The notes: a model not told the origin generated them from the sequence alone. 64,000 nucleotides of DNA from Candidatus Krumholzibacteriota bacterium (GCA_022711765.1 JAKLEB010000002.1:689726-753725), one strand, 5' to 3'. Numbered from the stretch's first letter, positions 3,834 to 61,668 are shown. A program made the numbers and translations.

Positions 3834-3869
3834 CGCGCGCGCCGCCTTCTGCGGGGAAGGCGGCGCGCG
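3834..3869 (-). terminator. GC-rich hairpin (14-bp stem) immediately downstream of the MCP gene
   Basis: cgcgcgccgccttc-tgcggg-gaaggcggcgcgcg is a perfect inverted repeat 18 nt past the MCP stop. No clear U-tract. Confidence 0.4.
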
Positions 3870-3887
3870 GTGGTCCGACCGGGTCGA

Positions 3888-6113: not shown

Positions 6114-6249
6114 GTGCGACGTCCTTTCGCGAGCAAGGCCAGGCGCTCCCCTCAGAACTCCCCGGCGCACAGAACGATCGACGTCGTTTTCGGAGTCGCG
6201 CCGACAAACTGTAGCATTTTCTTGTCCGATTGGTCGGTCTCGCGGGCGG

Positions 6250-7368: not shown

Positions 7369-7486
7369 GGCGTCTCCCGTCAAGCGAGCGGCCGGTTGTG
7401 CGGCGGCTCCATCTGGATTACCTTCCAGCGATCAGCGCCGGCCTTCCGGGCCGGCACATCGTCGCGCGATCCCCATGGCGAGAACT

Positions 7487-8347: not shown

Positions 8348-8360
8348 GAAGGACTCCGCG

Positions 8361-29087: not shown

Positions 29088-29126
29088 CGCACCGATATCA
29101 GAGTCGATCGAGTAATCCTCTCCTTC

Positions 29127-29158
29127 CCGGGCCTGGAGAAGCAGTACTCCAGGCCCGG
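29127..29158 (+). terminator. hairpin terminator downstream of the CRTAC1-like gene
   Basis: ccgggcctgga-gaagcagtac-tccaggcccgg is an 11-bp perfect stem 40 nt after the stop codon. Confidence 0.45.
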
Positions 29159-29750
29159 TAGGCAAATCAGATCTGATGAGACACGTCAGATGGTGATCTA
29201 TGAGAGACTTCGCGCCGGAGAAGAAGAGGGGCGCAAAGGCAGTAAACAAAGCGAGGAAGAGGCACGAAATGGATGGTTCTGGTCGATGGCGCGAGTACTT
29301 CGCTTGGAGCACACGTGGACGCAAAGTGCCCGGCGATAGTGAAACTCGAAAAGCGGACGATCCAAAACGTCTCCATGAGGCGAACGCATACGCCAAGCCG
29401 ACCATGACGAATTTAATTTGAATGACTGCGAATCGCACTTACGAAAGTAATCCGCGTCGTACAAACTTGGACAGGCGGCTTATCGAGCTGACCATTCCCG
29501 CTCGTTCGATACATCTCACATCCAGTCACCGAAACAGCCGAGAACTAAGGAGATACCGCTATCGTTGAATCGCGAAGCCAACGGTCACTTGGTTTGGAGG
29601 CTTCCGCCGTTTGCTGTTGTGGTATGAGCGACTGATTGGAACGTACCAGGAGTTGTTTAATGGCGCGTGTGCGTTTGTTGAGCTTTCGAGATATACGAAA
29701 TGGGCGCTGGGTACGGAATTGTACTTATGTAATTAATGAGAGGTACTAAG

Positions 29751-45788: not shown

Positions 45789-48146
45789 ATGCCCGTCGGC
45801 GCCCCACCGTCCAGCGGCCGCGAAGTCCGGGATCCGGTCTGCGGGATGACCACGACCGAGCCGTCCCGCTGGCTCGCGCAGGAGCACGCCGGCCGAATCC
45901 ACTATTTCTGCAGCGGCGGCTGCCGCGAGAGGTTCCTGCGCGACCCCGAGGCGTACGGGTCCGCGCCGGGGCACGATGCCGCCGGCCCCCGCGCGCCAGA
46001 GCCCGGACCCGCCGCTGCCGGGCGACTCTATACCTGTCCGATGCATCCCGAGGTGCGCCAGCTCGGGCCGGGGTCGTGCCCGAAGTGCGGGATGGCGCTC
46101 GAACCGGTCCTGGCCGAGTCCGACGACGAGGCCGCTGCGGACCCCGAGCTGCACGACTTCGCCCGGCGGTTGCGACTCGCCGCCGCGCTCACCCTGCCGC
46201 TGGTCCTGGTCGCCATGCGCCACATGCTCGGGCTCGGTTCGCTGGCGCACGCGTTGCCGGCGCGGGTGTGGCCCTGGCTCGAACTGCTCCTCGCGACGCC
46301 GGTCGTCGTGTGGGCCGGCTGGGTCCTGCACGCGCGGGCCTGGCGATCGCTGCGGCTCCGCAGCCCGAACATGTTCACGCTGATCGGGCTCGGGACCGGC
46401 GTGGCCTACGCGTACAGCGTGGCCGGCGTCGTCGCCCCCGGGGCGTTCCCCGCGTCGGCGCGCCTGGACGACGGCTCGGTCGGCCTGTACTTCGAGGCTG
46501 CCGCGGTGATCGTCACGCTGGTCCTCCTGGGCCAGGTGTTCGAGCTGCGCGCGCGCGGCCGCACGGGCGCCGCGATCCGGTCGCTATTGCAGCTCGCGCC
46601 GCGGACGGCGCGGCGGATCGGCGGGGACGGCACGGAGTCGGAGGTGGCGCTGTCCGCCATCCAGCCGGGCGATCGACTCCGCGTCCGTCCGGGCGAGAAG
46701 ATCCCGGTCGACGGGGTCGTCCTCGAGGGGAACAGCCGCGTCGACGAATCGATGCTCACGGGCGAACCGGCGCCGGTCGCGAAGTCGACGGCGGACCAGG
46801 TCACCGGCGGCACGGTGAACGGCTCCGGCTCCTTCGTGATGAGGGCGGACCGGGTCGGCGCCGACACCCTGCTCGCGCGGATCGTCCAGATGGTGGCGGA
46901 AGCGCAGCGCAGCCGGGCGCCGATCCAGCGGCTGGCCGACGCGGTGGCCGCGTGGTTCGTGCCGGCGGTGGTCGCGATCGCGGCCGCGGCGTTCGCGGCG
47001 TGGCTGATCTGGGGCCCGCAGCCGCGGCTCGCCCACGCGCTCGTCGCCGCGGTGTCCGTCCTGATCGTCGCCTGTCCGTGCGCGCTCGGCCTCGCGACGC
47101 CGATGTCGATCATGGTCGCCACCGGCCGCGGAGCCCTGGCGGGCGTGCTGTTCCGCAACGCCGAGGCGATCGAGAACCTCAGGCGCGTCGATACGATCGT
47201 CGTCGACAAGACCGGCACCCTCACCGAGGGCAAGCCGCGCCTGGCCGACGTGGTCGTCGCCGAAGGCTGGGACGCGGCCGAGGTGGTGAGCCTGGCGGCG
47301 GCGGTGGAGGTGGGGAGCGAGCACCCGCTCGCCGCCGCGGTCGTCGCCGGCGCGCGCGAGCGGAACGCCGGGCAGGCGGCGGCCGCCCGCGATTTCGCGT
47401 CGTACGCCGGCAAGGGAGTCACCGGCGAGGTCGGCGGGCGGACCGTCCTCGTGGGCACCGCGGACCTGCTCGCCGAGCACGGCGTCGACGGCGGCGCGCT
47501 CGCGTCGCGGGCCGAGGACCTGAGAGCCATGGCCAGCACGGTCGTCCACGTGGCCGTCGACGGCCGGCTCGCGGGTCTGCTCGCGATCGCCGACCCGATC
47601 AAGGCGAGCACGCCCGACGCGCTCGAGCGGCTGCGGGCCCTGGGACTGCGGATCGTGATGGTGACGGGCGACAGCGAGGCGACGGCGCGAGCGGTCGGGT
47701 CGAGGCTCGCGCTGTCGGACGTCGTCGCGGGGGTCCTGCCGGAGCAGAAGGCGGCGATGGTCGCGCGCCTACAGGGCGAGGGCCGCATCGTCGCGATGGC
47801 CGGCGACGGGATCAACGATGCGCCCGCGCTGGCGCGCGCCGACGTGGGGATCGCGATGGGAACGGGGACCGACGTGGCGATCCAGAGCGCTCCGGTGACG
47901 CTCGTGCGGGGAGACCTGCGAGCGATCGCGCGCGCGTACGCACTCAGCCGGGCGACCATGCGCAACATCCGCGAGAACCTCTTCTTCGCGTTCGTCTACA
48001 ACGCGCTCGGCGTACCCGTGGCGGCTGGGGTCCTGTACCCGGCCTTCGGGATCCTGCTGTCGCCGATGATCGCGGCGGCAGCCATGAGTTTCAGCTCCGT
48101 TTCGGTCGTCGCCAACGCCCTGCGGCTGCGCCGCGTCCGGCTGTGA
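45789..48146 (+). CDS. copA: copper-translocating P1B-type ATPase with N-terminal YHS/TRASH-type metal-binding domains
   Basis: DPVCGM...YFCSGGC (YHS), YTCPMHPEV...CPKCGM, CPC transmembrane motif ([12 protein letters not shown]), DKTGTLT phosphorylation site, [10 protein letters not shown]. Confidence 0.85.
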
Positions 48147-48202
48147 GCCCGGGGACCCGGCCGGGTCTCGCCGACTCCCCGCCCGGGAACGATGGCCGTC
48201 GC

Positions 48203-49285
48203 TTGCCGAGCGGCCTCTCGGTCATCCGATCTCGCGCCGAGTTCGCCCGCCTGCGGCGGGCCTGGAACGAGTGCCTCGCCACGATGCCGGGCGCGCATCT
48301 CTTCCTCACGCACGAGTGGCTCGCGGCGTGGCTCGAGCATCAGGGCCGCGGGGCCGAGTTGTTCGTGCCGGTCGTCGCGGACGGCGGCGCGATCCTGGCG
48401 GCCGCCCCGCTGGTCCGGCGGCGCGGCCGGTACTACGGGCTGCCGGTCGAGGAGATCGTCCTGATCGGCAACCACACCAGCGATCGCGTCCAGTTCCTCG
48501 TCCAGCCCGACCACGAGGATCTCTGCGAGACGCTCTGGCGGGCCATCCTGGCCGAGTGCGGACAGTGGCGGATCGTCCGCCTGGAGCAGGTCCCGGCCAC
48601 GGCGCCCACGGTGACGCGCCGCCCCGTGCGCGGTTGCCGCGTGGGCTGCGAGCCGACCTCGTCGCTGCCCTTCATCGACATCGCCGGCAGCTGGGAGGAC
48701 TTCGAGAAGTCGCTGGCGCCGAAATTCCGGTCCAAGCTCCGCAACAAGGAGAAGACGTTCGCCCACTGGGGGGACTGGACGCTGCGCGTCGTCCGCGGCT
48801 GTGAGACGATCGACCACCTGGATCAGCTCGTCGCCGTCGAGCTGGACAGCGCGAAGGCGGCGGGCGGTTATGCGTTCTTCGCCTCGGCGACCAACGTCGA
48901 GTTCGCGCGCGCCCTCCTGCGCTCCAGCCCGCCGCTCGATCCTCTCCTGTGCGAGCTGGTCATCGGGGACGAGGTCGTCGCCTATACCCTCGGGTTCATC
49001 CACGGCGGGGTCTACTTCGGCTACAACATGGCCTACCGCCGTGGCTACGAGGCGGGCAACTGCGGCAAGTGGCTGATCCACCAGACTTTCAAGTACGCGT
49101 TCGAGCATGGGTTGCGCGGCCTGGACCTGTTGCGCGGCGCCAGCGACGTCAAGCGCAACTGGCGCCCGCGCCTCGAACAGAACTGCCGCCTCGTGGTCTT
49201 TCCCCGCAATCCGCTGTTCCTGCCGCACAAGCTCGCGGTCTTCCACGTCCGGCCGGCCCTCAAGTCCCTCGTGAAAGGGAGGTAG
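48203..49285 (+). CDS. GNAT-fold acetyltransferase, FemAB/BioF2-like/CelD-like family
   Basis: N-terminus ...EFARLRRAWNECLATMPGAHLFLTHEWLAAWLEH and C-terminus GYEAGNCGKWLIHQTFKYAFEHGLRGLDLLRGASDVKRNW match the Acetyltransf_6/CelD-like family. Start codon (TTG 48203) uncertain. Confidence 0.6.
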   Translation: MPSGLSVIRSRAEFARLRRAWNECLATMPGAHLFLTHEWLAAWLEHQGRGAELFVPVVADGGAILAAAPLVRRRGRYYGLPVEEIVLIGNHTSDRVQFLVQPDHEDLCETLWRAILAECGQWRIVRLEQVPATAPTVTRRPVRGCRVGCEPTSSLPFIDIAGSWEDFEKSLAPKFRSKLRNKEKTFAHWGDWTLRVVRGCETIDHLDQLVAVELDSAKAAGGYAFFASATNVEFARALLRSSPPLDPLLCELVIGDEVVAYTLGFIHGGVYFGYNMAYRRGYEAGNCGKWLIHQTFKYAFEHGLRGLDLLRGASDVKRNWRPRLEQNCRLVVFPRNPLFLPHKLAVFHVRPALKSLVKGR

Positions 49286-49402
49286 TCCCGCGGCGCCGCG
49301 CCGGGTCGAACTACGCCTTGCGCTCGTGGACTTCGGCGGACATTATGTCGTGGCTGTCCATCGTCGAGACCGGGTGTCTCCGGGTGGGAATCGAGGCGAC
49401 AG

Positions 49403-50113
49403 ATGCAGATCGGCGTCCGTGAGGCTGCCCGCCTCCTGACCGTTTCCGAGAAGACGATCTACCGGTGGATCAAGGACGGCCGGCTGCCCGCCTACCTGAT
49501 CAACGAGCAGTACCGCTTCAACAAGGCGGAGCTGCTCGAATGGGCCACGGGCCGCAAGATCAACGTGTCGCCCCAGATCTTCGAGGAGCCGCCGGACGCC
49601 GACCGCGTGACGCTCCCCGCGGTCAGCGAGGCGCTCGAGGCCGGTGGCATCCACTATCGCGTCGCCGGCAAGGACACGTCCGCGGTGCTGATGGCGATCG
49701 TGGAATTGATGCGGCTGCCCGACGAGGTCGACCGGACCTTTCTGCACCAGGTCCTGCTCGCCCGGGAGTCGCTCGGCTCGACCGGCGTGGGCGACGGCAT
49801 CGCGATCCCGCACGTTCGCAATCCGATCGTCCTGCACGTCCCGCGGCCGACGGTGACGCTCTGTTTCCTGGAGCGGCCGATCGATTTCGGCGCGATCGAC
49901 GGCAAGCCGGTCAGCACGCTGTTCACGATCGTGAGCCCGGCGGTCCGGGCGCACCTGCATATCCTCTCGCGCCTCGTCTTCATCCTGCGCGACCTGACGC
50001 TGCGCGACCAGCTCGCCCGTCAGGCCTCCCGCGACGAGATCCTGGCCACGGTGCGCCGGGCCGAGGCGAGGGCGGTCACGGAGCCGCCGGCGGCGCCGCG
50101 GGAGGCGCCGTGA
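49403..50113 (+). CDS. putative regulator: N-terminal HTH_17 (excisionase/MerR-type) DNA-binding domain fused to PTS EIIA(Ntr)-type (PTS_EIIA_2) domain
   Basis: LTVSEKTIYRWIKDGRLPAYLINEQYRFNKAELLEWA (HTH), then EIIA-2 fold with active-site His in GDGIAIPHVRNP. Stop overlaps the GTG start of the next gene (GTGA). Confidence 0.75.
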   Translation: MQIGVREAARLLTVSEKTIYRWIKDGRLPAYLINEQYRFNKAELLEWATGRKINVSPQIFEEPPDADRVTLPAVSEALEAGGIHYRVAGKDTSAVLMAIVELMRLPDEVDRTFLHQVLLARESLGSTGVGDGIAIPHVRNPIVLHVPRPTVTLCFLERPIDFGAIDGKPVSTLFTIVSPAVRAHLHILSRLVFILRDLTLRDQLARQASRDEILATVRRAEARAVTEPPAAPREAP

Positions 50114-52083
50114 TCCTGCTGATCGCGTCGCTCGCCCTGCTGCTCGGCGGCGGCGCCGCGGCGCTGGCCGCGTCACGCCGGGATCGGCTGAGGAACGGGA
50201 TCGTGCTCGGCAGCCTGGTCGGCGCCTCGCTCGCGTCGCTGCCCGTGGCCATCGTGACGATCGCGCGCGGCGAATCGCTGGCGCTGCAGTGGCCGTGGAG
50301 CGTACCGCTGGGGTCGTTCGCCCTGGGCCTGGATCCGCTGTCCGCCTTCTTCCTCCTGCCGATCCTGGTGCTGGCACCGCTCGCGGGGATCTACGGCGTC
50401 GGTTACCTGCGCGCGTGGCAGGGCCGCAAGAATCTGGGCGCCTCGTGGTTCTTCTTCAACGTCCTGGTCGCCTGCATGATGCTGGTGGTCGTGGCGCGCA
50501 ACGCCGTGCTCTTCCTGGTCGCCTGGGAGGCCATGGCGCTCGCGTCGTACGCGCTGGTGGTGTTCGAGGACGAGCGAGGCGACGTGCGCGGCGCCGGCCG
50601 CACCTATCTCGTCGCGACGCACCTCGGGACGGGCGCCCTCTTCGTGCTCTTCGTCCTGCTGGGCCAGCCCGCGGGCTCGCTCGACTTCGCCGACCTGGGC
50701 GCCGGCGCGGGATCGCTGTCGCTCCTCTTCGCGCTGGCCGTGATTGGTTTCGGCACCAAGGCCGGGTTCATGCCGCTGCACGTCTGGTTGCCGGAGGCCC
50801 ACCCCGCGTCGCCGAGCCACGTCTCGGCGCTGATGTCCGGCGTGATGATCAAGACCGGCATCTACGGGCTGCTGCGCATCCTCATGGTCCTCGGGGCGCC
50901 GCCGCCGGCCTGGGGCTGGACGATGGTCGCGATCGGCGCGACCTCCGGCGTGCTCGGCGTGCTCTTCGCGCTGGCCCAGCACGACGTCAAGCGGCTGCTC
51001 GCCTATCACAGCGTCGAGAACATCGGCATCATCGCGCTCGGGCTCGGCGTGGGCCTGCTGGGCCGAAGCTACGACCAGCCGGCGATGGCGTACCTCGGGT
51101 TCGCCGGGGCGCTGCTCCACGTCGCGAACCACGCGCTGTTCAAGGGGCTGCTCTTCCTGGGCGCCGGCGCCGTCGCGCACGCCACGCACACGCGCGAGAT
51201 CGATCACCTGGGCGGCCTGCTGAAGCGGATGCCCTGGACCGGAACGACCTTCCTGGCCGGCTCCGCGGCGATCAGCGGGCTGCCGCCGTTCAACGGTTTC
51301 GTGAGCGAGTTCCTCATCTTCCTGGGCGCGCTGACCGGCGCCGTCACGCTCGGCGGCGCCGGCGCCGCGGTCGGGGCGGTCACGACGGGCGCGCTCGGCC
51401 TGATCGGCGGCCTGGCGGCCGCGTGCTTCGCGAAGGCCTTCGGCATCATGTTCCTCGGCGAGCCGCGCAGCCGTCACGCGGCGGATGCGACCGAGGTGGG
51501 CCGGTCGCTGCGCGTGCCGCTCGTCGTGCTGGCCGCGGCGTGCCTCGCGATCGGCCTCGGCGCTCCGTTCGTGGTCGCCGGCCTGGACAGCGTCGTCGTC
51601 GCGGCCGCCGGGTTGCCGCCGCACGACCCGGCCGGCCGAGCGCTGGCGGGACCGCCGCTGCGCATGGTCGCGCTCGGCAGCGCCGTCCTCCTCGCGCTGG
51701 TCGGCGCGCTCGTCCTGGCTCGCCGGGGTCTGCTGGCGAGACGGACCATCACGACCGCCCTGACCTGGGATTGCGGTTACGCGGCGCCCGATCGGCGGAT
51801 GCAGTACACCGCCGCCGGCTTCGCCCAGCCGCTGACCAGCCTGTTCCGGTTCGCCCTTCGGACGCGGCGCGAGGGCGAGCCCGTGCGGGGTCTGTTCCCG
51901 GCGCGAGCGTCGCTCGCGACCTCGACCCCGGATCCGATGCACCGCGAGATCTACGAGCCGGTCTTCGCGGCGGTCGGCCGGCTGTTCGCGAAACGGCGGT
52001 GGGTGCAGGGCGGTCAGACGCAGCTCTACGTCCTGTACATCGTCCTGACGCTCCTGGTGCTCCTCGTCTGGGAGCTCTCGTGA
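50110..52083 (+). CDS. HyfB/HycC/NuoL-like proton-conducting antiporter-type membrane subunit
   Basis: 657 aa polytopic; PF00361-type core (WLPEAHPASPSHVSALMSGVMIKTGIYGLLR...). Translationally coupled at both ends. Confidence 0.8.
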   Translation: MILLIASLALLLGGGAAALAASRRDRLRNGIVLGSLVGASLASLPVAIVTIARGESLALQWPWSVPLGSFALGLDPLSAFFLLPILVLAPLAGIYGVGYLRAWQGRKNLGASWFFFNVLVACMMLVVVARNAVLFLVAWEAMALASYALVVFEDERGDVRGAGRTYLVATHLGTGALFVLFVLLGQPAGSLDFADLGAGAGSLSLLFALAVIGFGTKAGFMPLHVWLPEAHPASPSHVSALMSGVMIKTGIYGLLRILMVLGAPPPAWGWTMVAIGATSGVLGVLFALAQHDVKRLLAYHSVENIGIIALGLGVGLLGRSYDQPAMAYLGFAGALLHVANHALFKGLLFLGAGAVAHATHTREIDHLGGLLKRMPWTGTTFLAGSAAISGLPPFNGFVSEFLIFLGALTGAVTLGGAGAAVGAVTTGALGLIGGLAAACFAKAFGIMFLGEPRSRHAADATEVGRSLRVPLVVLAAACLAIGLGAPFVVAGLDSVVVAAAGLPPHDPAGRALAGPPLRMVALGSAVLLALVGALVLARRGLLARRTITTALTWDCGYAAPDRRMQYTAAGFAQPLTSLFRFALRTRREGEPVRGLFPARASLATSTPDPMHREIYEPVFAAVGRLFAKRRWVQGGQTQLYVLYIVLTLLVLLVWELS

Positions 52084-52085
52084 TC

Positions 52086-53000
52086 ATGGCCATCGCCGCC
52101 GTCATCCACCTGCTGGTCGCGCTGCTCCTGGCGCCGCTGCTGCTCGGCGTCATCAACCGGACCAAGGCCGTCTTCGCCGGACGGCGAGGGCAGCCGCTGC
52201 TGCAGCTCTACGCCGACCTCGCCAAGCTCCTGCGCAAGGGAGCCGTCTACAGCGGCACGACGACCTGGGTGTTCCGGGCGGGACCGCTCGTGACCCTGGC
52301 GGCGGTCACCGTGTCCCTGCTCGTCGTGCCGTTCGCCGGCGTGCGCGCCGTGGGGGCCTTCCCGGGCGACTTCGTGCTCTTTGCCTACCTGCTCGCCGTC
52401 GCCCGCTTCTTCACCGTGATCGCCGCGCTCGACACCGGTTCGAGTTTCGAGGGGATGGGCGCGAGCCGCGAGGTCGCCTTCTCCGCGCTGGCCGAGCCCG
52501 CCCTCCTCGTCGGGCTCGCGGCCCTGGCCAGGCGCGCCGGCGGCGCGTCTCTGTCGGACTGCTACGAGGCGGTGCGGCTCTTCGACTTCGGACCGAACGG
52601 CGGCTTGCCGCTGCTCTTGATCGGCGCAGCCTTCTTCGTCGTCTTCCTGGCGGAGAACGCGCGGATCCCGTTCGACGATCCGAACACGCACCTCGAATTG
52701 ACGATGATCCACGAGGTGATGGTCCTGGACCACGGCGGGCCGGACCTCGCGTTCGTGCAGTACGCGGCGGCGCTGAAGCTGTGGGTGCTCGGCGCCCTGG
52801 TGGTGGGAATCCTGCTGCCGCTGCGCACCGGCTTCGTCGCCCTCGACTTCGGGTTCGGCCTGGCCGCCATGGCGGTGCTGGCCGTGGCGACGGGTTGTGT
52901 CGAATCGACGAAGGCCAGGGTGCGCCTGACGGGGGTGCCCCAGTTGCTGGTGGCCGCGACGGTCCTGGCCGGAGTCGGCTTCGGGCTGACGCTGCGGTAG
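52086..53000 (+). CDS. HyfC/HycD/NuoH-like membrane subunit
   Basis: MAIAAVIHLLVALLLAPLLLGVINRTKAVFAGRRGQPLLQLYADLAKLL closely parallels the HycD/NuoH N-terminus; 304 aa. Confidence 0.8.
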   Translation: MAIAAVIHLLVALLLAPLLLGVINRTKAVFAGRRGQPLLQLYADLAKLLRKGAVYSGTTTWVFRAGPLVTLAAVTVSLLVVPFAGVRAVGAFPGDFVLFAYLLAVARFFTVIAALDTGSSFEGMGASREVAFSALAEPALLVGLAALARRAGGASLSDCYEAVRLFDFGPNGGLPLLLIGAAFFVVFLAENARIPFDDPNTHLELTMIHEVMVLDHGGPDLAFVQYAAALKLWVLGALVVGILLPLRTGFVALDFGFGLAAMAVLAVATGCVESTKARVRLTGVPQLLVAATVLAGVGFGLTLR

Positions 53001-53026
53001 GAGGAGCGCGTGGTATCCGGGAGGCG

Positions 53027-53680
53027 ATGGCGGAGATGAACGACTGGATCGACGCGGCGATCGCGCTCGTCGTGCTCGGCAACCTGAGCTTGCTCGGGAC
53101 GAGCCGCCTCGTCGCCTGCATCCGGATCCTGGCGCTGCAGGGCCTCTTGCTGGGCCTGCTTCCCCTCTTCTTCCACGCGGACGACCTCACCCTGCGGGTC
53201 GTCCTCCAGGTCACCGCGAGCACGATCAGCAAGGGCATCGTCTTCCCCTGGCTGCTGACCCGCGCGGTGCGCGGCGCGGACGAGCGGCGCGAGGTCGCGC
53301 CCGTGGTCGGCTACACGCCGTCGCTGTTGATCGGCGGCGCGCTGCTCGGCCTCGCGCTGTGGCTGGGCGGGCGCCTGCCGCTGCCCGGCGACGCCGAATC
53401 GGAATTCCTGGTCGCGGTCGCGCTGAACACGACGATGGTCGGTCTCTTCCTCATCATCGCGCGGCGGATGGCGATCACCCAGGTGCTCGGCTACCTCGCA
53501 ATGGAGAACGGAATCACCACCTTCGGCCTGGTCTTCGCCGAGCGGGAACCGCTCCTGGTGGAGATGGGCATCTTCCTCGACGCGTTCATGGCGGTCTTCG
53601 TCATGGGCCTGATGGTCTACAACATCAACCGGGAGTTCCGTCACCTCGACACCGAACGGCTGTCGAACCTGACGGACTGA
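53027..53680 (+). CDS. HyfE-like small membrane subunit
   Basis: 217 aa, multiple TM helices, position and size equivalent to HyfE; GGGAGG RBS. Confidence 0.6.
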   Translation: MAEMNDWIDAAIALVVLGNLSLLGTSRLVACIRILALQGLLLGLLPLFFHADDLTLRVVLQVTASTISKGIVFPWLLTRAVRGADERREVAPVVGYTPSLLIGGALLGLALWLGGRLPLPGDAESEFLVAVALNTTMVGLFLIIARRMAITQVLGYLAMENGITTFGLVFAEREPLLVEMGIFLDAFMAVFVMGLMVYNINREFRHLDTERLSNLTD

Positions 53681-53695
53681 CGCCCGCGGAGCGCG

Positions 53696-55159
53696 ATGAT
53701 CGTCGCCCTCGTCCTGTTGCCCCTCACGGCCGGCGCGCTGGCGTTCTTCCTGCGCAGCGACGGGCTGCGCCGCGGTCTGCTGGTCGCGACCGCGCTCGCC
53801 CACTCCGGGCTCACGGTCGCGGCGTGGCTGCGGCGGCCGCTGGCCGAGCTGGGCGGCTGGCTGGAACTGGACGACCTCGAGCTGCTCATCCTGGCGGTCA
53901 CCAGCCTGCTCTTCCTGGTCGCGGCCGTCTACGCGGTGGGCTATCTGCGCCGCGAGGGCCGGGACCAGCGGGAGGACTACACGGAGGGTTTCCTCTTCGT
54001 CAACGCGCCGGAGGCCACCTTCACTGGCTGTCTGCTGCTCTTCCTCGGCGCCATGACCCTGGTCATCGGCGCGCAGCACTTCGGCCTGATGTGGGTCGCC
54101 GTCGAGGGCACCACGCTGGCGAGCGCGCCCCTCATCCACTTCCACCGCCATCATCGGTCCCTCGAGGCCGCCTGGAAGTACCTCGTCATCTGTTCGGTCG
54201 GCATCGCGATCGCCCTGCTGGGGAACTTCTTCCTCGTGGTGGCGACCTCCGCGCTGGACGACCAGCTCGGCGGCCTGACCGTGCGGGCCCTGGCCGAACA
54301 CGCCGGCCAGCTCGATCCCACCTGGCTGCGCGCGGCGTTCCTTCTCCTGCTCGTCGGCTACGGCACCAAGATGGGCCTCGCGCCCCTGCACACGTGGCTT
54401 CCCGACGCGCACAGCGAGGCGCCGTCGGTGGTCTCGGCGCTGCTCTCGGGTGCGCTGCTGAACTGCGCGTTCCTGGCGATCCTGCGCCTGCACGGCGTGT
54501 GCGTGGCCGCGGGTCAGGCGGCGTTCAGCGCGAACCTCCTGGTGGGTTTCGGCCTGGTCTCGATGGGCTTCGCCGCGGTCTTCATCGTCGGCCAGCGCGA
54601 CTACAAGCGGATGCTGGCGTACTCCAGCGTCGAGCACATGGGCATTGCCGCCCTCGGCGTGGGGCTCGGCGGCGCCGCGGGCTTCGGCGCGCTGCTCCAC
54701 GTGGTGAACCACTCGTTGACCAAGGGCATGCTGTTCCTGATCGCGGGCAACGTACTCGCGGCGTACCGCACGCGCTCCTCCGCGGAGGTCACCGGCCTGT
54801 TGCGCGCGCTGCCCGCCAGCGGCTTGCTGTGGCTGGCGGGGTTCCTCGCGGTCACCGGGTCGCCGCCGTTCGGACCGTTCCTGAGCGAGTTCACGATCCT
54901 GCGCGGCGGATTGGCGGCGCAGCGACCGGTCATCGCGGTCGTCTACCTCGTGCTCCTGTTGCTGGTGTTCGTCGGCATGGCGATGATCGTGCCCGGCATG
55001 GCCCATGGGGAGACGAACGTCGCCCGGCGGCGGGAGCCGTGGCTGGCCGTCGTGCCGCCGGCCTGCCTGGGGATCGGCGTGCTGATCCTCGGCGTCTACG
55101 TGCCCCGTCCCCTCGCCGACGCCATCACCCGCGCTCTGGGCGCCCTGGGGCTGTCATGA
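53696..55159 (+). CDS. HyfF/NuoM/NuoN-like proton-conducting membrane subunit
   Basis: 487 aa; PF00361 core (GTKMGLAPLHTWLPDAHSEAPSVVSALLSG...). Confidence 0.8.
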   Translation: MIVALVLLPLTAGALAFFLRSDGLRRGLLVATALAHSGLTVAAWLRRPLAELGGWLELDDLELLILAVTSLLFLVAAVYAVGYLRREGRDQREDYTEGFLFVNAPEATFTGCLLLFLGAMTLVIGAQHFGLMWVAVEGTTLASAPLIHFHRHHRSLEAAWKYLVICSVGIAIALLGNFFLVVATSALDDQLGGLTVRALAEHAGQLDPTWLRAAFLLLLVGYGTKMGLAPLHTWLPDAHSEAPSVVSALLSGALLNCAFLAILRLHGVCVAAGQAAFSANLLVGFGLVSMGFAAVFIVGQRDYKRMLAYSSVEHMGIAALGVGLGGAAGFGALLHVVNHSLTKGMLFLIAGNVLAAYRTRSSAEVTGLLRALPASGLLWLAGFLAVTGSPPFGPFLSEFTILRGGLAAQRPVIAVVYLVLLLLVFVGMAMIVPGMAHGETNVARRREPWLAVVPPACLGIGVLILGVYVPRPLADAITRALGALGLS

Positions 55160-56607
55160 GTGCGCATTTGGGCAACGGCGAATCGATCGCCCTTGGTGAC
55201 CTTCCCGTCCTGTCCGTGGCGGCGCTGCGCGACGAGGTGATCGGCGGCGTCGCGCGCGGCCGGCGGCTGGCGGCGTACTTCGGCGCGGGCCGGCGGGGCG
55301 ACGCGCTGCGCGTGGTCGCCGTCGTCGCGGGGGACGACGACGGCGAGTTGCTCGCGTGCGCGGCCGACGTTTCCGGCAGCTACGACGCGCTGACGCCCGA
55401 CTGCCCCCAGGCGCACTGGTTCGAGCGCGAGCTGGCCGAGCAGTGGGGTGTCGAGCCGCGCGGCCACCCGTGGCTCAAACCGATCCGCCGCATCCCGGAC
55501 GCGTTCTTCCGCGTCGACGGCGAGGAGGTCCACGAGGTCGCCGTGGGCCCGGTCCATGCCGGCGTCATCGAACCCGGCCACTTCCGTTTCCAGTGCCACG
55601 GCGAGGAGGTGCTGCATCTCGAGATCGCGCTCGGGTACCAGCACCGCGGCGTCGAGCGCGCGCTCGTCGGTGGACCCGACCGGCGCACGCTGGCGTACAT
55701 GGAGACCCTCGCCGGCGACACCACCATCGGGCACGCCCTGGCCCACGCGCTCGTCAGGGAAGCGCTCGGCGGCGGCGGCGCGCCGCCCCGCGCCCTGGCG
55801 ATCGCCGGCATCGCCCTCGAGCTCGAGCGCCTCGCCAACCACATCGGCGACCTGGGCGCTCTCGCCGGCGACGTCGGGTTCCTTCCGACCGCCGCCTACT
55901 GCGGGCGCATCCGCGGCGACGTGCTCAACGCCACCGCCCAGCTCTGCGGCAACCGCTTCGGCCGCGGTCTCGTGCGCCCCTACGGCCTCGACCACGACGT
56001 CGACGACGCCTTGCGCGAGGATCTCCAGCGCCGGCTCGCCGCCGCCCGCCAGGACTTCGCGGTCGCCGATCGCCTGCTCTGGGACTCCCCGTCGGTGATG
56101 GCCCGATTCGAGGGCACCGGCCTGCTCTCCCTGGACGTGTGCGACGAGATCGGACTCGTCGGCCCCGCCGCCCGCGCCTGCGGCGCCGAGCGCGACGTTC
56201 GCCAGAACCACCCCCACGGCATCTACCGCTTCGTCCACATCCCGATCTGCACCTGGCCGACGGGCGACGTCTTCGGGCGCGCTCACGTCCGCTCGATCGA
56301 GGTCCAGCGGTCGTTCGCCTTCATCCAGGAGCTGCTCGACAGCCTGCCGGGCGGACCGGTCGCGCTGGAGCGCCCGGCGCCGCCGGCGGCCGACCGACTC
56401 GCCGTGGCCCTCGTCGAAGGCTGGCGCGGCGAGATCTGCCACGTCGCGCTCACGGGCGCCGATGGGCGCTTCGCGCGCTACAAGGTCGTCGACCCCTCGT
56501 TCCACAACTGGTTCGGGCTGGCGCTCGCGATGCGCGGTCAGCAGATCTCCGACTTCCCGCTCTGCAACAAGAGCTTCAATCTCAGCTACTGCGGACACGA
56601 CCTATGA
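55156..56607 (+). CDS. NuoC/NuoD-like fused 'large subunit' (HycE/HyfG homologue) lacking the canonical [NiFe]-binding cysteine motifs
   Basis: GPVHAGVIEPGHFRFQCHGEEVLHLEIALGYQHRGVE (NuoD/HycE signature). The L1 motif RxCGxCxxxH is replaced by TLAGDTTIGH, and the C-terminus LCNKSFNLSYCGHDL replaces DPCxxCxxH. ATGA coupling on both sides. Confidence 0.75.
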   Translation: MSAHLGNGESIALGDLPVLSVAALRDEVIGGVARGRRLAAYFGAGRRGDALRVVAVVAGDDDGELLACAADVSGSYDALTPDCPQAHWFERELAEQWGVEPRGHPWLKPIRRIPDAFFRVDGEEVHEVAVGPVHAGVIEPGHFRFQCHGEEVLHLEIALGYQHRGVERALVGGPDRRTLAYMETLAGDTTIGHALAHALVREALGGGGAPPRALAIAGIALELERLANHIGDLGALAGDVGFLPTAAYCGRIRGDVLNATAQLCGNRFGRGLVRPYGLDHDVDDALREDLQRRLAAARQDFAVADRLLWDSPSVMARFEGTGLLSLDVCDEIGLVGPAARACGAERDVRQNHPHGIYRFVHIPICTWPTGDVFGRAHVRSIEVQRSFAFIQELLDSLPGGPVALERPAPPAADRLAVALVEGWRGEICHVALTGADGRFARYKVVDPSFHNWFGLALAMRGQQISDFPLCNKSFNLSYCGHDL

Positions 56608-57380
56608 TCAAGACGACCCTGGCGAGGCTCCAGCAGAAACACCGGACGACCCGGTACCCGGACGGTCCGCCGCCGTCGTTGCCGGATCGCTACCGCGGCC
56701 GGCCGGTCATCGCGGCCGGCGCCTGCCCCGAGGGATGCCGGCAGTGCGCGGACGAATGTCCGACCGGCGCGATCACGCTCGAGGGGAGCGTGGGCCTGGA
56801 CCTCGGGAAGTGCCTGTTCTGCGCGAGGTGCGAGGCGGTCTGCCCGGCGCAGGCGATCCGGTTCGGCCGCGACCATCAGCTCGCCGCGAGCCGGCGCGAG
56901 GACCTGGTGCTCGGCCCCGAGGGCGCCCGCCTCGCGGTCGAGCTGAGCGACCGGCTGCGACGCCTGTTGGGCCGATCCCTGAAGCTGCGCGTGGTGAGCG
57001 CGGGGGGCTGCAACGCTTGCGAGGCCGACACGAACGTCCTGTCGACCGTCGGCTGGGATCTCGGCCGGTTCGGCATCCAGTTCGTCGCGTCGCCGCGCCA
57101 CGCCGACGGGCTCCTGATCACCGGACCGGTGACCGCGGCCATGCGCCCGGCTCTGCGCAAGACGTGGGAGGCGGTGCCCGAGCCCAAGATCGTGATCGCC
57201 GTCGGCGCGTGTGCGATCAGCGGCGGCCCCTTCCTCGGCCATGCCGAGCAGCACGACGGCGCCGCGTCGACGGTGCCGGTCGACCTCCACATCCCGGGCT
57301 GTCCGCCCCACCCGCTGACCATCCTGGACGGCCTGCTCCGGCTGCTCGGCCGGATCCCGGAACCGGAGGCCGGCGGCTGA
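56604..57380 (+). CDS. fused NuoI-like 2x[4Fe-4S] ferredoxin and NuoB/hydrogenase small-subunit-like protein
   Basis: CPEGCRQCADECP and CLFCARCEAVCP (ferredoxin half), then GGCNACEAD...SPRHADGLLITGPVT...VGACAISGGPF...PGCPP (small-subunit cluster-binding cysteines conserved). Confidence 0.75.
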   Translation: MIKTTLARLQQKHRTTRYPDGPPPSLPDRYRGRPVIAAGACPEGCRQCADECPTGAITLEGSVGLDLGKCLFCARCEAVCPAQAIRFGRDHQLAASRREDLVLGPEGARLAVELSDRLRRLLGRSLKLRVVSAGGCNACEADTNVLSTVGWDLGRFGIQFVASPRHADGLLITGPVTAAMRPALRKTWEAVPEPKIVIAVGACAISGGPFLGHAEQHDGAASTVPVDLHIPGCPPHPLTILDGLLRLLGRIPEPEAGG

Positions 57381-57394
57381 CCAGGGTCGCGGGT

Positions 57395-58405
57395 TCAGGG
57401 CAGACCGGCCGCCTTGCGCACCATCTCCGCCGCTTCCATCGCGCGCAGCCCGTCGCGACCGCCGACCTGCGGCGCCACGCCCTCCCGGATGCACCGCGCG
57501 AATGCGGCGAGCTCGTCGCGCAACGGGTTCGCGTCCGGGTCCACCGGCGGTTTCTCGACCGAGACCAGATTATTCTGCACGAAATCGGTCGGGGACAGGC
57601 CGCCGAGGTCCTGGGGCGTCAGCGCTTCCGGTTTGATCTCCCCGGATTCGAGCCGCGGGTCGCGGCGGGTCACCGTCGCGATCCGGTCCATGAAATCGAC
57701 CTCGATGAACGCGTCCGGTTGGTAGATGCGCAGGCGCCGCTCGGTACGCAGCGCGGTGCGCACGGCCTTCAGCTGCGCGCAGGCGCCGCCCCTGAACTCG
57801 ATCCAGGCGGCGGCCAGGTCCTCGGTGGAGGAGAAGACCGGCGTCGCCCACGCGCGCACCTCGACGATCTCGTCGCGCACGAGGGCCAGGATGATCTCGA
57901 GGTCGTGGATCATGAGGTCGAGCACGACGCCGACATCGGTCGCGCGGAACGGGTAGGGCGCCACGCGCACCGCCTCGAGGAAGCGGGGATTGGCGATCTT
58001 CCGGGTGACAGCCCGCAGCGCGGGGTTGAACCGCTCGATATGGCCCACCTGGAGCAGGGTCTGCTGGCGCTCCGCGAGCTCGCAGAGCGAGCGCGCCTCG
58101 GCGGCGGTCGCCGCCATGGGCTTCTCGACCAGGCACGGGATCCGTTGTTCGAGGAAGTGGGTCGCCAGGCGGTGGTGCAGGGTCGTCGGCGCGGCGATCG
58201 TGACGCCGTCCACCGCGCCCGCTTCGAGGTCCTCGTGCCGCGGCACCCACCGGCAGCCGTAGAGGTCGGCGAGGGTCTTGCGCGAAGGATCGGGGTCGCA
58301 GATCGCGACCAGTTCGATACCCGACAGGCCGGCCAGCTGCTGGGCGTGCCAGCGGCCGAGATGGCCGGCGCCGACCACGGCGATGCGCAGGGATTGGGAA
58401 GGCAT
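57395..58405 (-). CDS. Gfo/Idh/MocA family NAD(P)-dependent oxidoreductase
   Basis: RIAVVGAGHLGRWHAQ (Rossmann GxGxxG), EKP motif (CLVEKPMA); 336 aa. Confidence 0.75.
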   Translation of the reverse strand: MPSQSLRIAVVGAGHLGRWHAQQLAGLSGIELVAICDPDPSRKTLADLYGCRWVPRHEDLEAGAVDGVTIAAPTTLHHRLATHFLEQRIPCLVEKPMAATAAEARSLCELAERQQTLLQVGHIERFNPALRAVTRKIANPRFLEAVRVAPYPFRATDVGVVLDLMIHDLEIILALVRDEIVEVRAWATPVFSSTEDLAAAWIEFRGGACAQLKAVRTALRTERRLRIYQPDAFIEVDFMDRIATVTRRDPRLESGEIKPEALTPQDLGGLSPTDFVQNNLVSVEKPPVDPDANPLRDELAAFARCIREGVAPQVGGRDGLRAMEAAEMVRKAAGLP

Positions 58406-58531: not shown

Positions 58532-59923
58532 TCACTTCACGTACGCGAGGCGACAGGTCGCCGGACCCGCCGGGCGATCGACCCGGGCGACGTACGCGCC
58601 GGTCGCGAGCGGCCGCCCCCGGGCGTCGGCCGCATCCCAGTCCACCGTCCCGCGGCCGTCCCGCAGAGGCATCACGAGCGTGTCCACGCGGCGGCCGCGC
58701 AGATCGTAGATCACCGCCTCGGCGTTCGCCCCGACGCCGGGCGCCTCGAGCGCGAGGGTCGTCCGCCCGTTGAACGGGTTCGGACTCGCCGTCAGCCTGG
58801 CGGCCGGCGGCGCAACGGCCGAAGGGACCGCCGTCACGCCGGCGAGGCCGGCCACCGTGGCGGTCGCCGTCACGGCCACCCGCACGTTCCGCGTGGTGAA
58901 GGTCGGGTCGAGGTAGATCACGAGGTCGCCCGTCGTGTGGTAGCGGGGATTGAAGTCGGGGTCGCCCCAGTCCCAGGCTTCCTCGTGGTTGACGGCCGCA
59001 TACCCCTCCTGCCAGAACGAGTAGAAGTCGCCCCACCAGATGTCCTCGGCCTCGTGGAGGACGAAGGGCATGTCGGCGTAGGTGGTCGCCGCGTCGACGA
59101 CCGCGGCCGCGAGGCACTGCGAATGCGCGTTGGTCTCGATCTCGAGGTCGAACGGCACGCCGGGCTCCCACCACCCGACCATGTCGAAGTTCAGGGCGCC
59201 GAGGATGGCGGCGCCCTGCGACGCCTGCAGCTGGACCCACGCGCGGCTGCCGCGCAGGCCCTGCTCCTCGCCGCCGAAGAGCGCGTACTGGACGGTATAG
59301 CCCAGCTGGTGGCCGGCCAGCAGCCGGGCGCAAGTCAGCACCGCGATCGCGCCGCTCGCATTGTCGTCGGCGCCGGGAGTCGCGACCTCCGGCGCCTCGC
59401 TCGTGGCGTCGTAGTGCGCGCAGACCACCACGATCGAATCGGGCTGGACCTCGCCCACCTGGGTGGCGATGACGTTGGGCACGACGATCCCGGAGATCGT
59501 GAAGTCGTGCTGCTCGGTCGCGAGGCCCAGAGCCGCGAACCTGGCCTCGAGCTGGTCGGCCACGACGTGGATGTTCGCGTTCAGGCTGTGACGGACGCCG
59601 AGCCCCACGAGCCACTCGAGGTCGGCCTGGAGATCGCCCCAGACCACCTGGTCGGCGAGGTTCTGCACGCGCGGATCGGGGTCGCGCAGCGGGGTCCAGG
59701 CGCGCGCCGCGGCGCGCGGCGCGGGCACCGGTGCCGGCCGGGCGCCGGGCCACCGGTCGACGAGCTCGGCCGGACCCTCCACCAGCCAGAGGTCGCCGCG
59801 CCGGTCGAGGACGCGGACGCCCGGCGGAGCCGCGGGCGAGGGGACGACGAAGCGGATGTCGTCCGCCAGGGCCGCGGTCGCGACGGCGGTCAGGCAGAGC
59901 ATGGCGGCGATCGAGCGGGGCAT
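58532..59923 (-). CDS. M28-family zinc aminopeptidase with C-terminal FlgD-Ig-like domain, secreted
   Basis: Signal peptide; CAHYDATS, GADDNASG, LFGGEEQGLRGS M28 metal/catalytic motifs; C-terminus ASPNPFNGRTTLALEAP...GAYVARV. Confidence 0.8.
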   Translation of the reverse strand: MPRSIAAMLCLTAVATAALADDIRFVVPSPAAPPGVRVLDRRGDLWLVEGPAELVDRWPGARPAPVPAPRAAARAWTPLRDPDPRVQNLADQVVWGDLQADLEWLVGLGVRHSLNANIHVVADQLEARFAALGLATEQHDFTISGIVVPNVIATQVGEVQPDSIVVVCAHYDATSEAPEVATPGADDNASGAIAVLTCARLLAGHQLGYTVQYALFGGEEQGLRGSRAWVQLQASQGAAILGALNFDMVGWWEPGVPFDLEIETNAHSQCLAAAVVDAATTYADMPFVLHEAEDIWWGDFYSFWQEGYAAVNHEEAWDWGDPDFNPRYHTTGDLVIYLDPTFTTRNVRVAVTATATVAGLAGVTAVPSAVAPPAARLTASPNPFNGRTTLALEAPGVGANAEAVIYDLRGRRVDTLVMPLRDGRGTVDWDAADARGRPLATGAYVARVDRPAGPATCRLAYVK

Positions 59924-60069: not shown

Positions 60070-61668
60070 ATGACTAGCAAGATCCTGATCGCCGCGTGCG
60101 TTCTCTCGCTCCACCTCGCCTCGATCGCCGAGGCCCGCTTCATCATGTTCGACGCCCACTTCGACAATCGCGCCGTCGGCTCGAGCCTCGACCGGCGAGG
60201 CGCCCGTTTCGGCGAGCCGATCGAGGCGGACGGCGACAACCACAGCGAGGTCGTCGTCCAGGACGGCCCCGGCGACCGCTCCGTGCAGATCTGGGACACG
60301 ACCAGCACCGGCAGCGACGAGCTCACCTTCGCCCTGGTCGACGGCCGGGAGGTCGTTGACGGCAAGCTCAACATCTCGCTCGAACTGCAGCTCGACTCGG
60401 TCGACGTCTACAAGGTCGCGATCGAGGGGCCGAATCCCAACGCCATGTGGTTCTTCGACCTCACCCTCGACGCCGCCGGCATCATGTACCTGTCCGACGC
60501 CGACGATTTCCCGCTGGCCGCGTTCGACACCTATGCCGCGGGCGACCTGCTCCTGATCGAGTTGAGCTTCAACCTGAACAACGGGACCTACGATTTCACC
60601 CTCAACGGCGTCCCCGTCCTCACCAACGAGACCCACGGCCTGACGGCCTACGGCCCGGCGCTCATCGTGGTCGGCAACCAGTCCGACGGCAACGCCACCG
60701 GCTCGGTCCGGCTGGACAACCTGTCGGTCGACTGGGCGCCGGGCACCGCCGACGAGCTGCTGACGGCGAATTTCAACGACGAGCCGATCGGCCAGCCCAT
60801 CGGCACCGGCGGCGCGGCGCTCGGCCAGCCGATCGAATATTCCGGCTGCACGCCGACCGTCGAGAACGGCGGCTTCGCCACGCCCGCGCTGCTGATCCAG
60901 GACGAGTCCACGACCACCACGTCGCGCGTGCGATTCGGGTTCCTGAACGACATCGAGGCGACCGGCGATCTCTCGATCTCGTTCCGGCTGTACTTCGAAT
61001 CCCTGGAATCCTACTTCGTCTACCTCCGCGAGGAGGGCACGAGCGCGGCCCAGTTCCTCACCCTCAAATTCACCCCGACAGGCGACGTGCTGTTCGACGA
61101 CGAGACCAGCGCCGGCACGCACTACCACACCGAGTCGTACGTCGCGCAGCAGCCGATCCACGTCGAGCTGGCCTACTACGCGGCTCTCGGCGTGTACAGC
61201 GTCTGGATGGACGGCGAGCGCGTGGTGCACCGCCGCGAGCACGGGGTCGCGGGCCGCGGCATCGGCGGGATCCTCTTCGGCGCGTCCTTCGATGGCAATG
61301 TCGACGGCCAGATGCGGGTGGACGCGATCAACGTCGACGCCCTGGACGGCACGTTGACCCCGGTCCGGGAGGATGACGCGCCCGCGCTCTTGCCGGCCAC
61401 GTTCCGGGCGGCGCCCAACCCGTTCAATCCGGCGACGGCGCTGCGCTTCACGCTGCCGCAGGCGGGTCGGGTCCAGCTCGACATCGTCGATCTGCGCGGC
61501 CGCCGCGTGCGGCAGCTCGTGAGCGAGGCGCTCGCGGCGGGCGAGCACGCGGTCACCTGGCAGGGGACCGATGAGGCCGGGTGCCCGGCGGCCTCCGGCG
61601 TGTACCAGGCGCTGCTGCGTGTCGACGGTCGCCTCCGCGAGCGCGTGCCGCTCACGCTGGTGAAGTAG
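60070..61668 (+). CDS. secreted hypothetical protein (two beta-sandwich-like regions) with C-terminal FlgD-Ig-like domain
   Basis: Signal peptide MTSKILIAACVLSLHLASIAEA; C-terminus AAPNPFNPATALRFTLP...GVYQALL. Confidence 0.65.
   Translation: MTSKILIAACVLSLHLASIAEARFIMFDAHFDNRAVGSSLDRRGARFGEPIEADGDNHSEVVVQDGPGDRSVQIWDTTSTGSDELTFALVDGREVVDGKLNISLELQLDSVDVYKVAIEGPNPNAMWFFDLTLDAAGIMYLSDADDFPLAAFDTYAAGDLLLIELSFNLNNGTYDFTLNGVPVLTNETHGLTAYGPALIVVGNQSDGNATGSVRLDNLSVDWAPGTADELLTANFNDEPIGQPIGTGGAALGQPIEYSGCTPTVENGGFATPALLIQDESTTTTSRVRFGFLNDIEATGDLSISFRLYFESLESYFVYLREEGTSAAQFLTLKFTPTGDVLFDDETSAGTHYHTESYVAQQPIHVELAYYAALGVYSVWMDGERVVHRREHGVAGRGIGGILFGASFDGNVDGQMRVDAINVDALDGTLTPVREDDAPALLPATFRAAPNPFNPATALRFTLPQAGRVQLDIVDLRGRRVRQLVSEALAAGEHAVTWQGTDEAGCPAASGVYQALLRVDGRLRERVPLTLVK

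Follow-up and report, generated by a model that had tools for sequence, protein, structure and literature searches.

A seven-gene Ehr operon

The DNA analyzed here, a 64-kb stretch of a metagenome-assembled genome (MAG) of Candidatus Krumholzibacteria with about 72% G+C (hereafter "the window"), carries between 49403 and 57380 a complete operon for an energy-converting hydrogenase-related (Ehr) complex of the Geobacter type, made of six structural proteins plus a dedicated regulator with a helix-turn-helix (HTH) and an EIIA domain. The locus is typical of a family that is already known. Ehr was reportedly described by Coppi in 2005 as an Ech-hydrogenase-related complex of Geobacter sulfurreducens (GSU0739-0745) and has been recognized since; the expansion of the name used here is said to be that of Marreiros in 2013. 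Raw lists of open reading frames were noisy in this DNA. Profiles of third-position GC (GC3) delimited seven consecutive genes on the + strand with a largest gap of 26 nt, all of them with intact reading frames and a strong GC3 signal, and identical contigs in public metagenomes, annotated as Candidatus Krumholzibacteria, had the same gene calls. A sequence-only reading of the window had proposed a Hyf/complex-I-like module in the order regulator-B-C-E-F-NuoCD-NuoI/NuoB, and every domain named in it was recovered with Pfam and NCBIfam models (Table 1).

That reading had also described almost every junction as a 4-nt overlap, which holds for four of the six: GTGA at 50110 (the GTG start of EhrA lying on the stop codon of the regulator) and 52080, and ATGA at 55156 and 56604. 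The remaining two are gaps of 26 nt (EhrB/EhrC) and 15 nt (EhrC/EhrD), both with a GGAG-type ribosome-binding site, and the start of EhrB is ambiguous, with an alternative ATG at 52086, 2 nt past the EhrA stop. Deducing stoichiometric production from these junctions is over-reading. Scans of positions 49000 to 57800 gave no sigma-70 promoter-like sites and terminator-like sites at chance level only, and internal transcription units are therefore unsupported. Upstream, 117 nt separate the operon from a GNAT-family gene whose end is at 49285; downstream, a convergent GFO/IDH/MocA oxidoreductase gene lies 14 nt away. An Rfam gathering scan of the whole window returned zero RNA families, and its low-GC stretch (see below) contained no rRNA.

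Table 1. Features of the ehr locus, in positions of the window
Feature	Position	Strand	Signature or description
Candidate operator TGGACttcggcGGACAttaTGTCGtggcTGTCCA	49327-49360	+	Two GGAC half-sites in a 10-bp register, then two inverted TGTC half-sites
Regulator, HTH_17-EIIA(Ntr)-type	49403-50113	+	PF12728 and PF00359
EhrA, HyfB/NuoL-like antiporter-type membrane subunit, 657 aa	50110-52083	+	Proton_antipo_M; NCBIfam HyfB
EhrB, HyfC/HycD/NuoH-like membrane subunit	52080-53000	+	Pfam NADHdh, 9.3e-30
EhrC, HyfE-like membrane subunit, C-terminal half NuoK-like	53027-53680	+	NCBIfam HyfE, 8.5e-27
EhrD, HyfF/NuoM-N-like antiporter-type membrane subunit	53696-55159	+	Proton_antipo_M; NCBIfam HyfF, 2.7e-114
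EhrL, NuoC-NuoD/HycE-type large subunit without NiFe ligands	55156-56607	+	Complex1_30kDa and Complex1_49kDa
EhrS, fused NuoI/HycF-like and NuoB/HycG-like small subunit	56604-57380	+	Fer4 dicluster and Oxidored_q6

The close relatives of EhrL number in the thousands, and the best 120, with identities of 59 to 86%, are from MAGs with labels such as Krumholzibacteria, Planctomycetes, Deltaproteobacteria, Acidobacteria and Kryptonia. The invariant peptides IEPGHFRF and DFPLCNKS, searched for in a collection with one genome per species, retrieved at least 599 related stretches, with Planctomycetota, Verrucomicrobiota, Geobacterales, Acidobacteriota, Gemmatimonadota, Spirochaetota, Omnitrophota, Riflebacteria, Hydrogenedentota, Chlamydiota, Fibrobacterota and Alphaproteobacteria among the matches listed. 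Ehr is found in hundreds of bacterial species, including Geobacter and the environmentally dominant Planctomycetota, Verrucomicrobiota and Acidobacteriota. Representatives at 50% identity from the full library outlined a broad clade without the NiFe motifs, whose signature is xGD[ST] ... DFPLCNKSFNLSY[C/S/A]GxDL. The nearest true NiFe relatives, which have CGxC and CxxC (P0229, P0236, P0245 and P0251), are about 39% identical to EhrL and share DFPLxNKSF, in agreement with the reported branching of Ehr next to group 4f.

Geobacteraceae loci with large subunits 53 to 57% identical to EhrL, among them the Geomonas, Geobacter and Geobacteraceae loci L046, L050, L051 and L053 (55 to 57%), showed the layout A-1, A-2, B, C, D, L, S, matching the published composition of Ehr (EhrA-1, EhrA-2, B, C, D, L and S; PMC7894505). 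The window and Geobacter Ehr have in common the NuoL/HyfB-, NuoH-, HyfE- and HyfF-like subunits, the non-NiFe large subunit and the small subunit, and the Geobacteraceae loci also share its gene order, the HTH-EIIA gene and the NuoI-NuoB fusion, differing in having two HyfB-like genes (EhrA-1 and EhrA-2) instead of one. Orthology to the Geobacter ehr genes was seen through these close relatives, G. sulfurreducens itself not being among the 80 loci compared. The large non-NiFe clade and the Geobacteraceae loci of the same layout bear out the proposal that the module is Ehr-type, that is, like complex I and the group 4 hydrogenases but without a NiFe site. The literature treats the function of Ehr as unknown.

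The subunits and the former NiFe site

The proteins used for comparison with Escherichia coli were drawn from annotated K-12 loci. EhrA is 40% identical to HyfB (630 bits with the NCBIfam HyfB model, cut-off 667), and its residues E140, K217, K248 and E400 align with NuoM E144, K234, K265 and E407, while EhrD is 41% identical to HyfF (383 bits, cut-off 610), with E137, K225, N256 and E398 in the pattern of HyfF. These antiporter-like subunits retain the Glu of transmembrane helix 5, the Lys of helix 7 and the Glu of helix 12; the Lys of helix 8 is Asn in EhrD, as in HyfF. EhrC matches the C-terminal part of HyfE at 42% identity (94 bits with the NCBIfam model, cut-off 136), with Pfam Oxidored_q2 over residues 129 to 215. 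EhrB, 31 to 32% identical to HycD and HyfC, has in alignment the charges R35, D46, R130, E139, D199, E206 and R282 in common with both HycD and NuoH, and would anchor the peripheral arm.

EhrS joins two proteins that are separate in E. coli. The NuoI-like part (35% identical to HycF) has the ligands of two [4Fe-4S] clusters (Cys 41, 45, 48, 52 and 70, 73, 76, 80), and the NuoB-like part (49% identical to HycG) those of one more (Cys 136, 139, 203 and 233, aligned with the HycG ligands), with CxxC where the NuoB of complex I has the tandem-Cys N2 motif (CC). The fusion was recovered as a single high-scoring segment pair in 68 of 71 related loci. On these identities, the membrane arm and the small subunit are Hyf/Hyc-like.

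EhrL, at 29% identity to HycE, 27% to HyfG and 22% to NuoCD, has diverged from Hyf/Hyc much further than the other subunits. We aligned it with HycE (7z0s_E), HyfG, Nqo4 and MbhL and scored the motif states in 80 cluster representatives. At the first motif, L1, DRVCGICGFAH of HycE corresponds to ETLAGDTTIGH (CGIC to AGDT), and at the second, L2, SLDPCYSCTDR corresponds to SFNLSYCGHDL (CYSC to SYCG), so that all four NiFe ligand positions are substituted (Ala186, Thr189, Ser477 and Gly480). The canonical motifs RxCGxCxxxH and DPCxxCxx[H/R] were absent on realignment, in accordance with the earlier statement that this subunit cannot bind NiFe. What stands in their place, A186-G-D188-T189 and S477-Y-C479-G480-H-D-L, is nearly invariant. 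When 54 large subunits of diverse phyla were compared, little or no variation was seen in the beta1-beta2 loop GPVHAGVIEPGHFRFQC, in the AGD motif or in the C-terminal 18 residues, and the pocket that replaces the NiFe site is under very strong constraint. A universal metal site formed by Cys470, Cys479 and His481 was also considered and was weakened by the variation of Cys479 and His481 across the wider non-NiFe clade.

An AlphaFold2 (AF2) model of EhrL, with a mean predicted local distance difference test score (pLDDT) of 82.5, had HycE 7z0s_E as its best match in the Protein Data Bank (PDB), at a template modeling (TM) score of 0.83, followed by NuoCD chains. The least confident segments of the model (residues 131-141, 267-273 and 470-483, pLDDT < 50) are among the most conserved of the family. 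Assembly of the complex, or a bound ligand, is probably needed to order these loops, and with the most conserved loops at such values no pocket geometry could be derived from the model.

Sequence similarity to HycE (1.1e-40) is also far above that to the large subunit of MBS, 6u8y_L (1.3e-17). MBS (formerly MBX) is the one characterized precedent known to us for a non-NiFe relative of the group 4 hydrogenases, and by analogy the proximal cluster of Ehr might directly reduce a soluble acceptor, such as a sulfur compound. We consider this very unlikely: although 6u8y_L is a detectable homologue of EhrL, EhrL is much nearer HycE than MbsL, the operon has no Mrp-type extra subunits and many of the host lineages are not sulfur-respiring.

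Nor do the data fit a hydrogenase in decay, as suggested for Geobacter KN400. One paper calls Ehr nonfunctional for want of a NiFe site (PMC13194489), and some authors dismiss these complexes as dead hydrogenases; the constraint is, however, very strong precisely where the NiFe site used to be. The near-invariance of the remodelled pocket across phyla argues for a working enzyme rather than a relic. In addition, the seven frames are intact, all iron-sulfur and pump residues are retained, identity stays at 60 to 70% across phyla while the residues that took the place of the active site do not vary, Geobacter expresses the proteins (PMC7894505), and a dedicated regulator and a cis-element are conserved (see below). 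Alone among the rival explanations, decay is effectively excluded by the conservation pattern, which leaves it a negligible probability. The iron-sulfur ligands, the antiporter residues, the NuoH charges, the conservation and the expression in Geobacter all point to a working machine.

Compared with E. coli Hyf and Hyc (group 4a [NiFe] hydrogenases), the module shares the closest solved structure (HycE), the NuoC-NuoD fusion in the large subunit and the subunit set B, C, E, F, G, H and I, with the equivalents of HyfH and HyfI fused. It differs in the missing NiFe ligands, in a large subunit only 27 to 29% identical, and in that HyfA/HycB, HyfD, HyfJ, HyfR/FhlA, FdhF, Hyp and HycI are all absent from the window. 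With complex I (NDH-1) it shares the homologous core (NuoB, C, D, H, I, K-like and L/M/N-like), the pump residues, the NuoH charges and the lack of a NiFe site. Here the differences are an operon with four membrane genes only, without NuoA and NuoJ, no NuoE/F/G in the window, CxxC in place of the tandem-Cys N2 motif, quinone ligands that are not conserved, and the low identity to NuoCD given above. The subunits fall outside Hyf, Hyc and Nuo, as judged by scores below the NCBIfam equivalog cut-offs and by identities of 22 to 49% to E. coli proteins; this comparison covered Hyf, Hyc, Nuo and, for Mbh, only the large subunit (6cfw_L), which was a weaker match than HycE.

tblastn searches of the 64-kb window with E. 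coli HypA-F, HycI, HycH, HycB, HyfA, HydN, FdhF and FhlA gave zero matches, as did those with NuoE/F/G, and the HyfD query matched only its paralogues EhrA (HyfB-like) and EhrD (HyfF-like). The sequence-only reading was thus right, on the scale of the window rather than the genome, that HyfA, HyfD, hyp genes and a formate dehydrogenase (FDH) are lacking. Across 80 genome loci, a survey of neighbors (FDH, Hyp, ferredoxin and PTS genes) found nothing conserved beyond the seven genes, except for a SulP/STAS gene described below. A self-contained module with no FDH, Hyp or HycB in the window favors a soluble donor such as ferredoxin.

This absence also bears on whether the operon could encode the membrane module of a formate-linked FDH-Ehr complex, similar to formate hydrogenlyase (FHL), with its FDH encoded elsewhere. 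All Ehr subunits were detected in the G. sulfurreducens proteome, varying with condition and peaking in formate-grown cells (PMC7894505). In the literature, an FDH-Ehr complex has already been proposed for Margulisbacteria and Saganbacteria, and in Methylocystis a related "group 4f" cluster was induced at pH 5 together with two FDHs; the membrane subunits are, besides, closest to Hyf, i.e., to FHL-2. Against these points, neither an FDH nor a HycB/HyfA-type connector was found in the window or among the conserved neighbors of the 80 loci, and the operon is self-contained across many phyla, which makes a formate-linked complex quite unlikely.

The HTH-EIIA regulator and its candidate operator

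The first gene of the operon encodes an N-terminal HTH_17 domain of the excisionase/MerR-like type (PF12728, 4.7e-15; TIGR01764 above its cut-off) followed by an EIIA domain of the phosphotransferase system (PTS) (PF00359, PTS_EIIA_2, 9.6e-23). The EIIA domain scored 69.9 bits with the NCBIfam PtsN model (equivalog cut-off 138.7), is 35% identical to E. coli PtsN and has His137, in the motif GDGIAIPH, aligned with PtsN His73, the established phosphorylation site of that protein. His137 is accordingly a putative phospho-acceptor. In the PDB, the AF2 model of the regulator came closest in fold to the EIIA(Ntr) structures 3urr, 1a6j and 2a0j (TM score of 0.83 to 0.85). Fold, GIAIPH phospho-histidine and a downstream HLH motif are common to both proteins, while that of the window is fused to HTH_17 and encoded with ehr rather than with rpoN. 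In this way the regulator would link Ehr to PTS(Ntr) sensing of carbon, nitrogen and energy.

Homologues of the regulator are 64 to 79% identical across phyla, a conservation equal to that of the enzyme, and His137, His184 and His186 are invariant in 32 of them. Where enough upstream sequence was available (52 evaluable genome loci), the HTH-EIIA gene lay inside the cluster in 39, directly 5' of the HyfB-like gene in 28 and elsewhere in the cluster in 11, and there was none in the other 13. In the reverse survey, with the regulator as query, 63 metagenome loci could be evaluated: in 56 the next gene downstream was HyfB-like, and in 3 more the cluster was nearby. The HTH-EIIA gene is therefore a conserved, dedicated and mutually associated partner of the Ehr module. 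The sequence-only reading had pointed to this neighbor as unlike characterized hyf-type operons; it is not, however, an oddity of the window, as the 39 of 52 loci show. In two loci of Geobacter/Geobacteraceae (L050 and L053), the genes of the regulator and EhrA-1 have, as a block, the opposite orientation to the other ehr genes, which suggests that the pair is a functional unit. We also noted, in L040 (4348-4977) and similar loci of Opitutae/Verrucomicrobiota, a divergent paralogue of about 29% identity located between the HyfB-like and NuoH-like genes rather than in first position, which still matches HTH_17 and EIIA_2; the Opitutae copy is counted among the 11 above.

To look for shared upstream elements, we compared 100 nonredundant 200-nt regions 5' of regulator homologues using an iterated weight matrix. 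The motif ATGTCCAnnnTTGTCCAA, a direct repeat of TGTCCA with a spacing of one helical turn, was present in 69 of the 100 (about 5 expected from the shuffle threshold), with about 45 of these 69 sites beginning at -55 ± 1 relative to the start codon. A regular expression for the repeat had 52 matches in 1.85 Mb of loci, 42 of them at most 120 nt 5' of a regulator gene and on the same strand, and in several loci the repeats sit between a TTGACA hexamer and the -10 position. Tandem direct repeats suit HTH proteins of the excisionase type (cf. lambda Xis), and for this reason we think that the TGTCCA repeats are probably the operator of the regulator, overlapping its own promoter. In the window, the candidate operator of Table 1 is the only match to the loose pattern TGTCS-N3-6-TGTCY in all 64 kb, and its GGAC..GGACA..TGTC bases do not vary among the three closest relatives. 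No exact inverted repeats were found in the 117-nt upstream gap, and the element emerged only from the 100-region comparison.

In the accessible literature, which did not include Coppi 2005, we found no earlier account of the family-wide reciprocal HTH-EIIA(Ntr) association, of the TGTCCA-repeat element or of the near-universal NuoI-NuoB fusion, and nothing on HTH-EIIA regulators of hydrogenase-like operons or on GSU0738. An Ehr operon in a MAG will not surprise a specialist, but the function of Ehr is a long-standing question, which the regulator and the candidate operator make more testable: they provide an experimental handle on the complex and could reveal the conditions under which it is switched on.

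Possible function and genomic neighborhood

The reading that we favor, with a probability of about 0.55, is that Ehr carries out ferredoxin-linked, ion-translocating electron transfer to an acceptor other than H+, likely quinone, under control of the PTS(Ntr) type. The peripheral arm consists of two polypeptides, EhrL and EhrS, and would be seated on the NuoH-like EhrB, flanked by EhrC, EhrA and EhrD. A soluble low-potential carrier, most likely ferredoxin, would dock on the NuoI-like domain of EhrS, as the analogy with Ech and Mbh and the lack of any connector or partner enzyme conserved nearby suggest. Electrons would then pass through three [4Fe-4S] clusters to the N2 equivalent and on to an acceptor bound in a pocket between EhrL, EhrS and EhrB. 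This acceptor would not be H+ at a NiFe center; our best guess is a membrane (mena)quinone, because complex I binds quinone at this place, the Ehr hosts known to us contain quinones, and the authors of the work on the related Hyq system (see below) reason likewise. The redox step would be coupled to H+ or Na+ translocation through EhrA and EhrD, and in reverse the ion gradient could drive the formation of reduced ferredoxin. The regulator would act as an autoregulator whose HTH domain binds the TGTCCA/TGGACA repeats before its own gene. A PTS(Ntr)-like relay would phosphorylate His137 and so switch the EIIA domain, tying expression to carbon, nitrogen and energy status. The EIIA domain might also touch the pump directly. 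In evolutionary terms, Ehr would be a second, independent reuse of the group 4 hydrogenase core for other chemistry, besides complex I and MBS.

Several observations weigh against this reading. Donor, acceptor and ion are all inferred, and the quinone step is weak: the quinone ligands of Nqo4, Tyr87 and His38, align with EhrL Gly187 and Ile138, so the canonical ligands are missing and any quinone site must be of a different design. No homologue of NPr, the partner protein in PTS(Ntr), was found in the 64-kb window. The window element departs from the majority consensus, with a 9-bp spacing, a partly inverted arrangement and a poor weight-matrix score. Lastly, the Hyq relative has no NuoI-like domain and yet has H2-related phenotypes, a combination that does not fit easily with either ferredoxin as donor or a chemistry other than that of H2.

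Hyq of Azorhizobium caulinodans and Rhizobium, for which NifA control and H2 phenotypes have been reported (PMC2650096; PMC3357923), is also a compact set of seven genes, ordered regulator-B-C-E-F-large-small. Its large subunit, 36% identical to EhrL, lacks both CxxC motifs and has GD[ST] and DFPLCNKSF in common with it; identity is 56% for the NuoB domain and 37 to 40% for B, C and F. On the other hand, HyqR is a 98-aa HTH protein of the Xre type with no similarity to the HTH_17-EIIA protein, HyqI consists of NuoB only, without the NuoI-like ferredoxin domain, and HyqG (..RVSGDS../..NCSYSGHDL) retains one L2 cysteine (NCSYSG). These comparisons place the window module as a sister group of Hyq rather than as a member.

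Hyq has been described as a bidirectional H2:quinone "endo-hydrogenase," and the Krumholzibacteria complex could be, like it, an H2-metabolizing enzyme with a noncanonical site. Deletion of hyqRBCEFGI raised H2 release 15-fold in N2-fixing cultures and abolished about 80% of microaerobic H2 evolution (PMC3357923), and these phenotypes occur although HyqG is without both CxxC motifs (PMC3357923; PMC2650096). The common B-C-E-F-G-I order, the GDS...DFPLCNKSF shared by the large subunits and a pocket with the tight conservation expected of a catalytic site are also in line with such an enzyme. However, the four Ni/Fe-binding cysteines are replaced in EhrL, hyp and protease genes were found neither in the window nor in the conserved neighborhoods, and Hyq itself differs in the small subunit and regulator. 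Moreover, the evidence for Hyq comes from whole-operon deletions in vivo, its authors reporting no cell-free assay and calling the site speculative (PMC3357923). On balance we regard H2 metabolism as unlikely.

It is equally improbable, in our opinion, that the near-invariant xGD[ST], PLCNKSFNLSYCGHDL, C147, C249, C264 and C428 form a new catalytic or cofactor site, with the EIIA domain gating the HyfB-like subunit by contact. The site might perform NiFe-independent H2 chemistry, as Hyq hints, or might bind a metal through Cys, His and Asp and use CO2/bicarbonate or formate as substrate; the regulator stays paired with the HyfB-like subunit even in split operons. Electron transfer from ferredoxin to a non-H+ acceptor is the reading that we retain.

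Outside the seven genes, a SulP-family transporter gene (Sulfate_transp and STAS) lies on the same strand directly 3' of the small-subunit gene in seven Verrucomicrobiota loci, including L061 (12113-14026). SulP members include bicarbonate transporters, and this neighbor, confined to one lineage, might indicate a link to inorganic carbon or anions. Plasmid 3 of Variovorax sp. PBL-E5 (L169) carries at 2734-10018 an Ehr-type cluster with a large subunit 41 to 44% identical and the NuoI-NuoB fusion, but no HTH-EIIA gene, and a second, hyf-like cluster starts a few kilobases downstream, at 13430. In the window, the region 5' of the operon (45789-49285) encodes a heavy-metal P-type ATPase (YHS, HMBD and E1-E2_ATPase) and the GNAT/FemAB-like Acetyltransf_6 protein, neither of which is conserved in related loci. 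Further upstream, a stretch of lower G+C (25773-33269; 55 to 63% versus about 72%) encodes two very large proteins, of 1104 aa (FG-GAP and ASPIC/UnbV) and 1177 aa (BACON). Each ends in a FlgD_ig-like domain, which is also found at the C terminus of the proteins encoded at 58532-59923 (- strand) and 60070-61668 (+ strand), and this common tail looks like a secretion or sorting tail.

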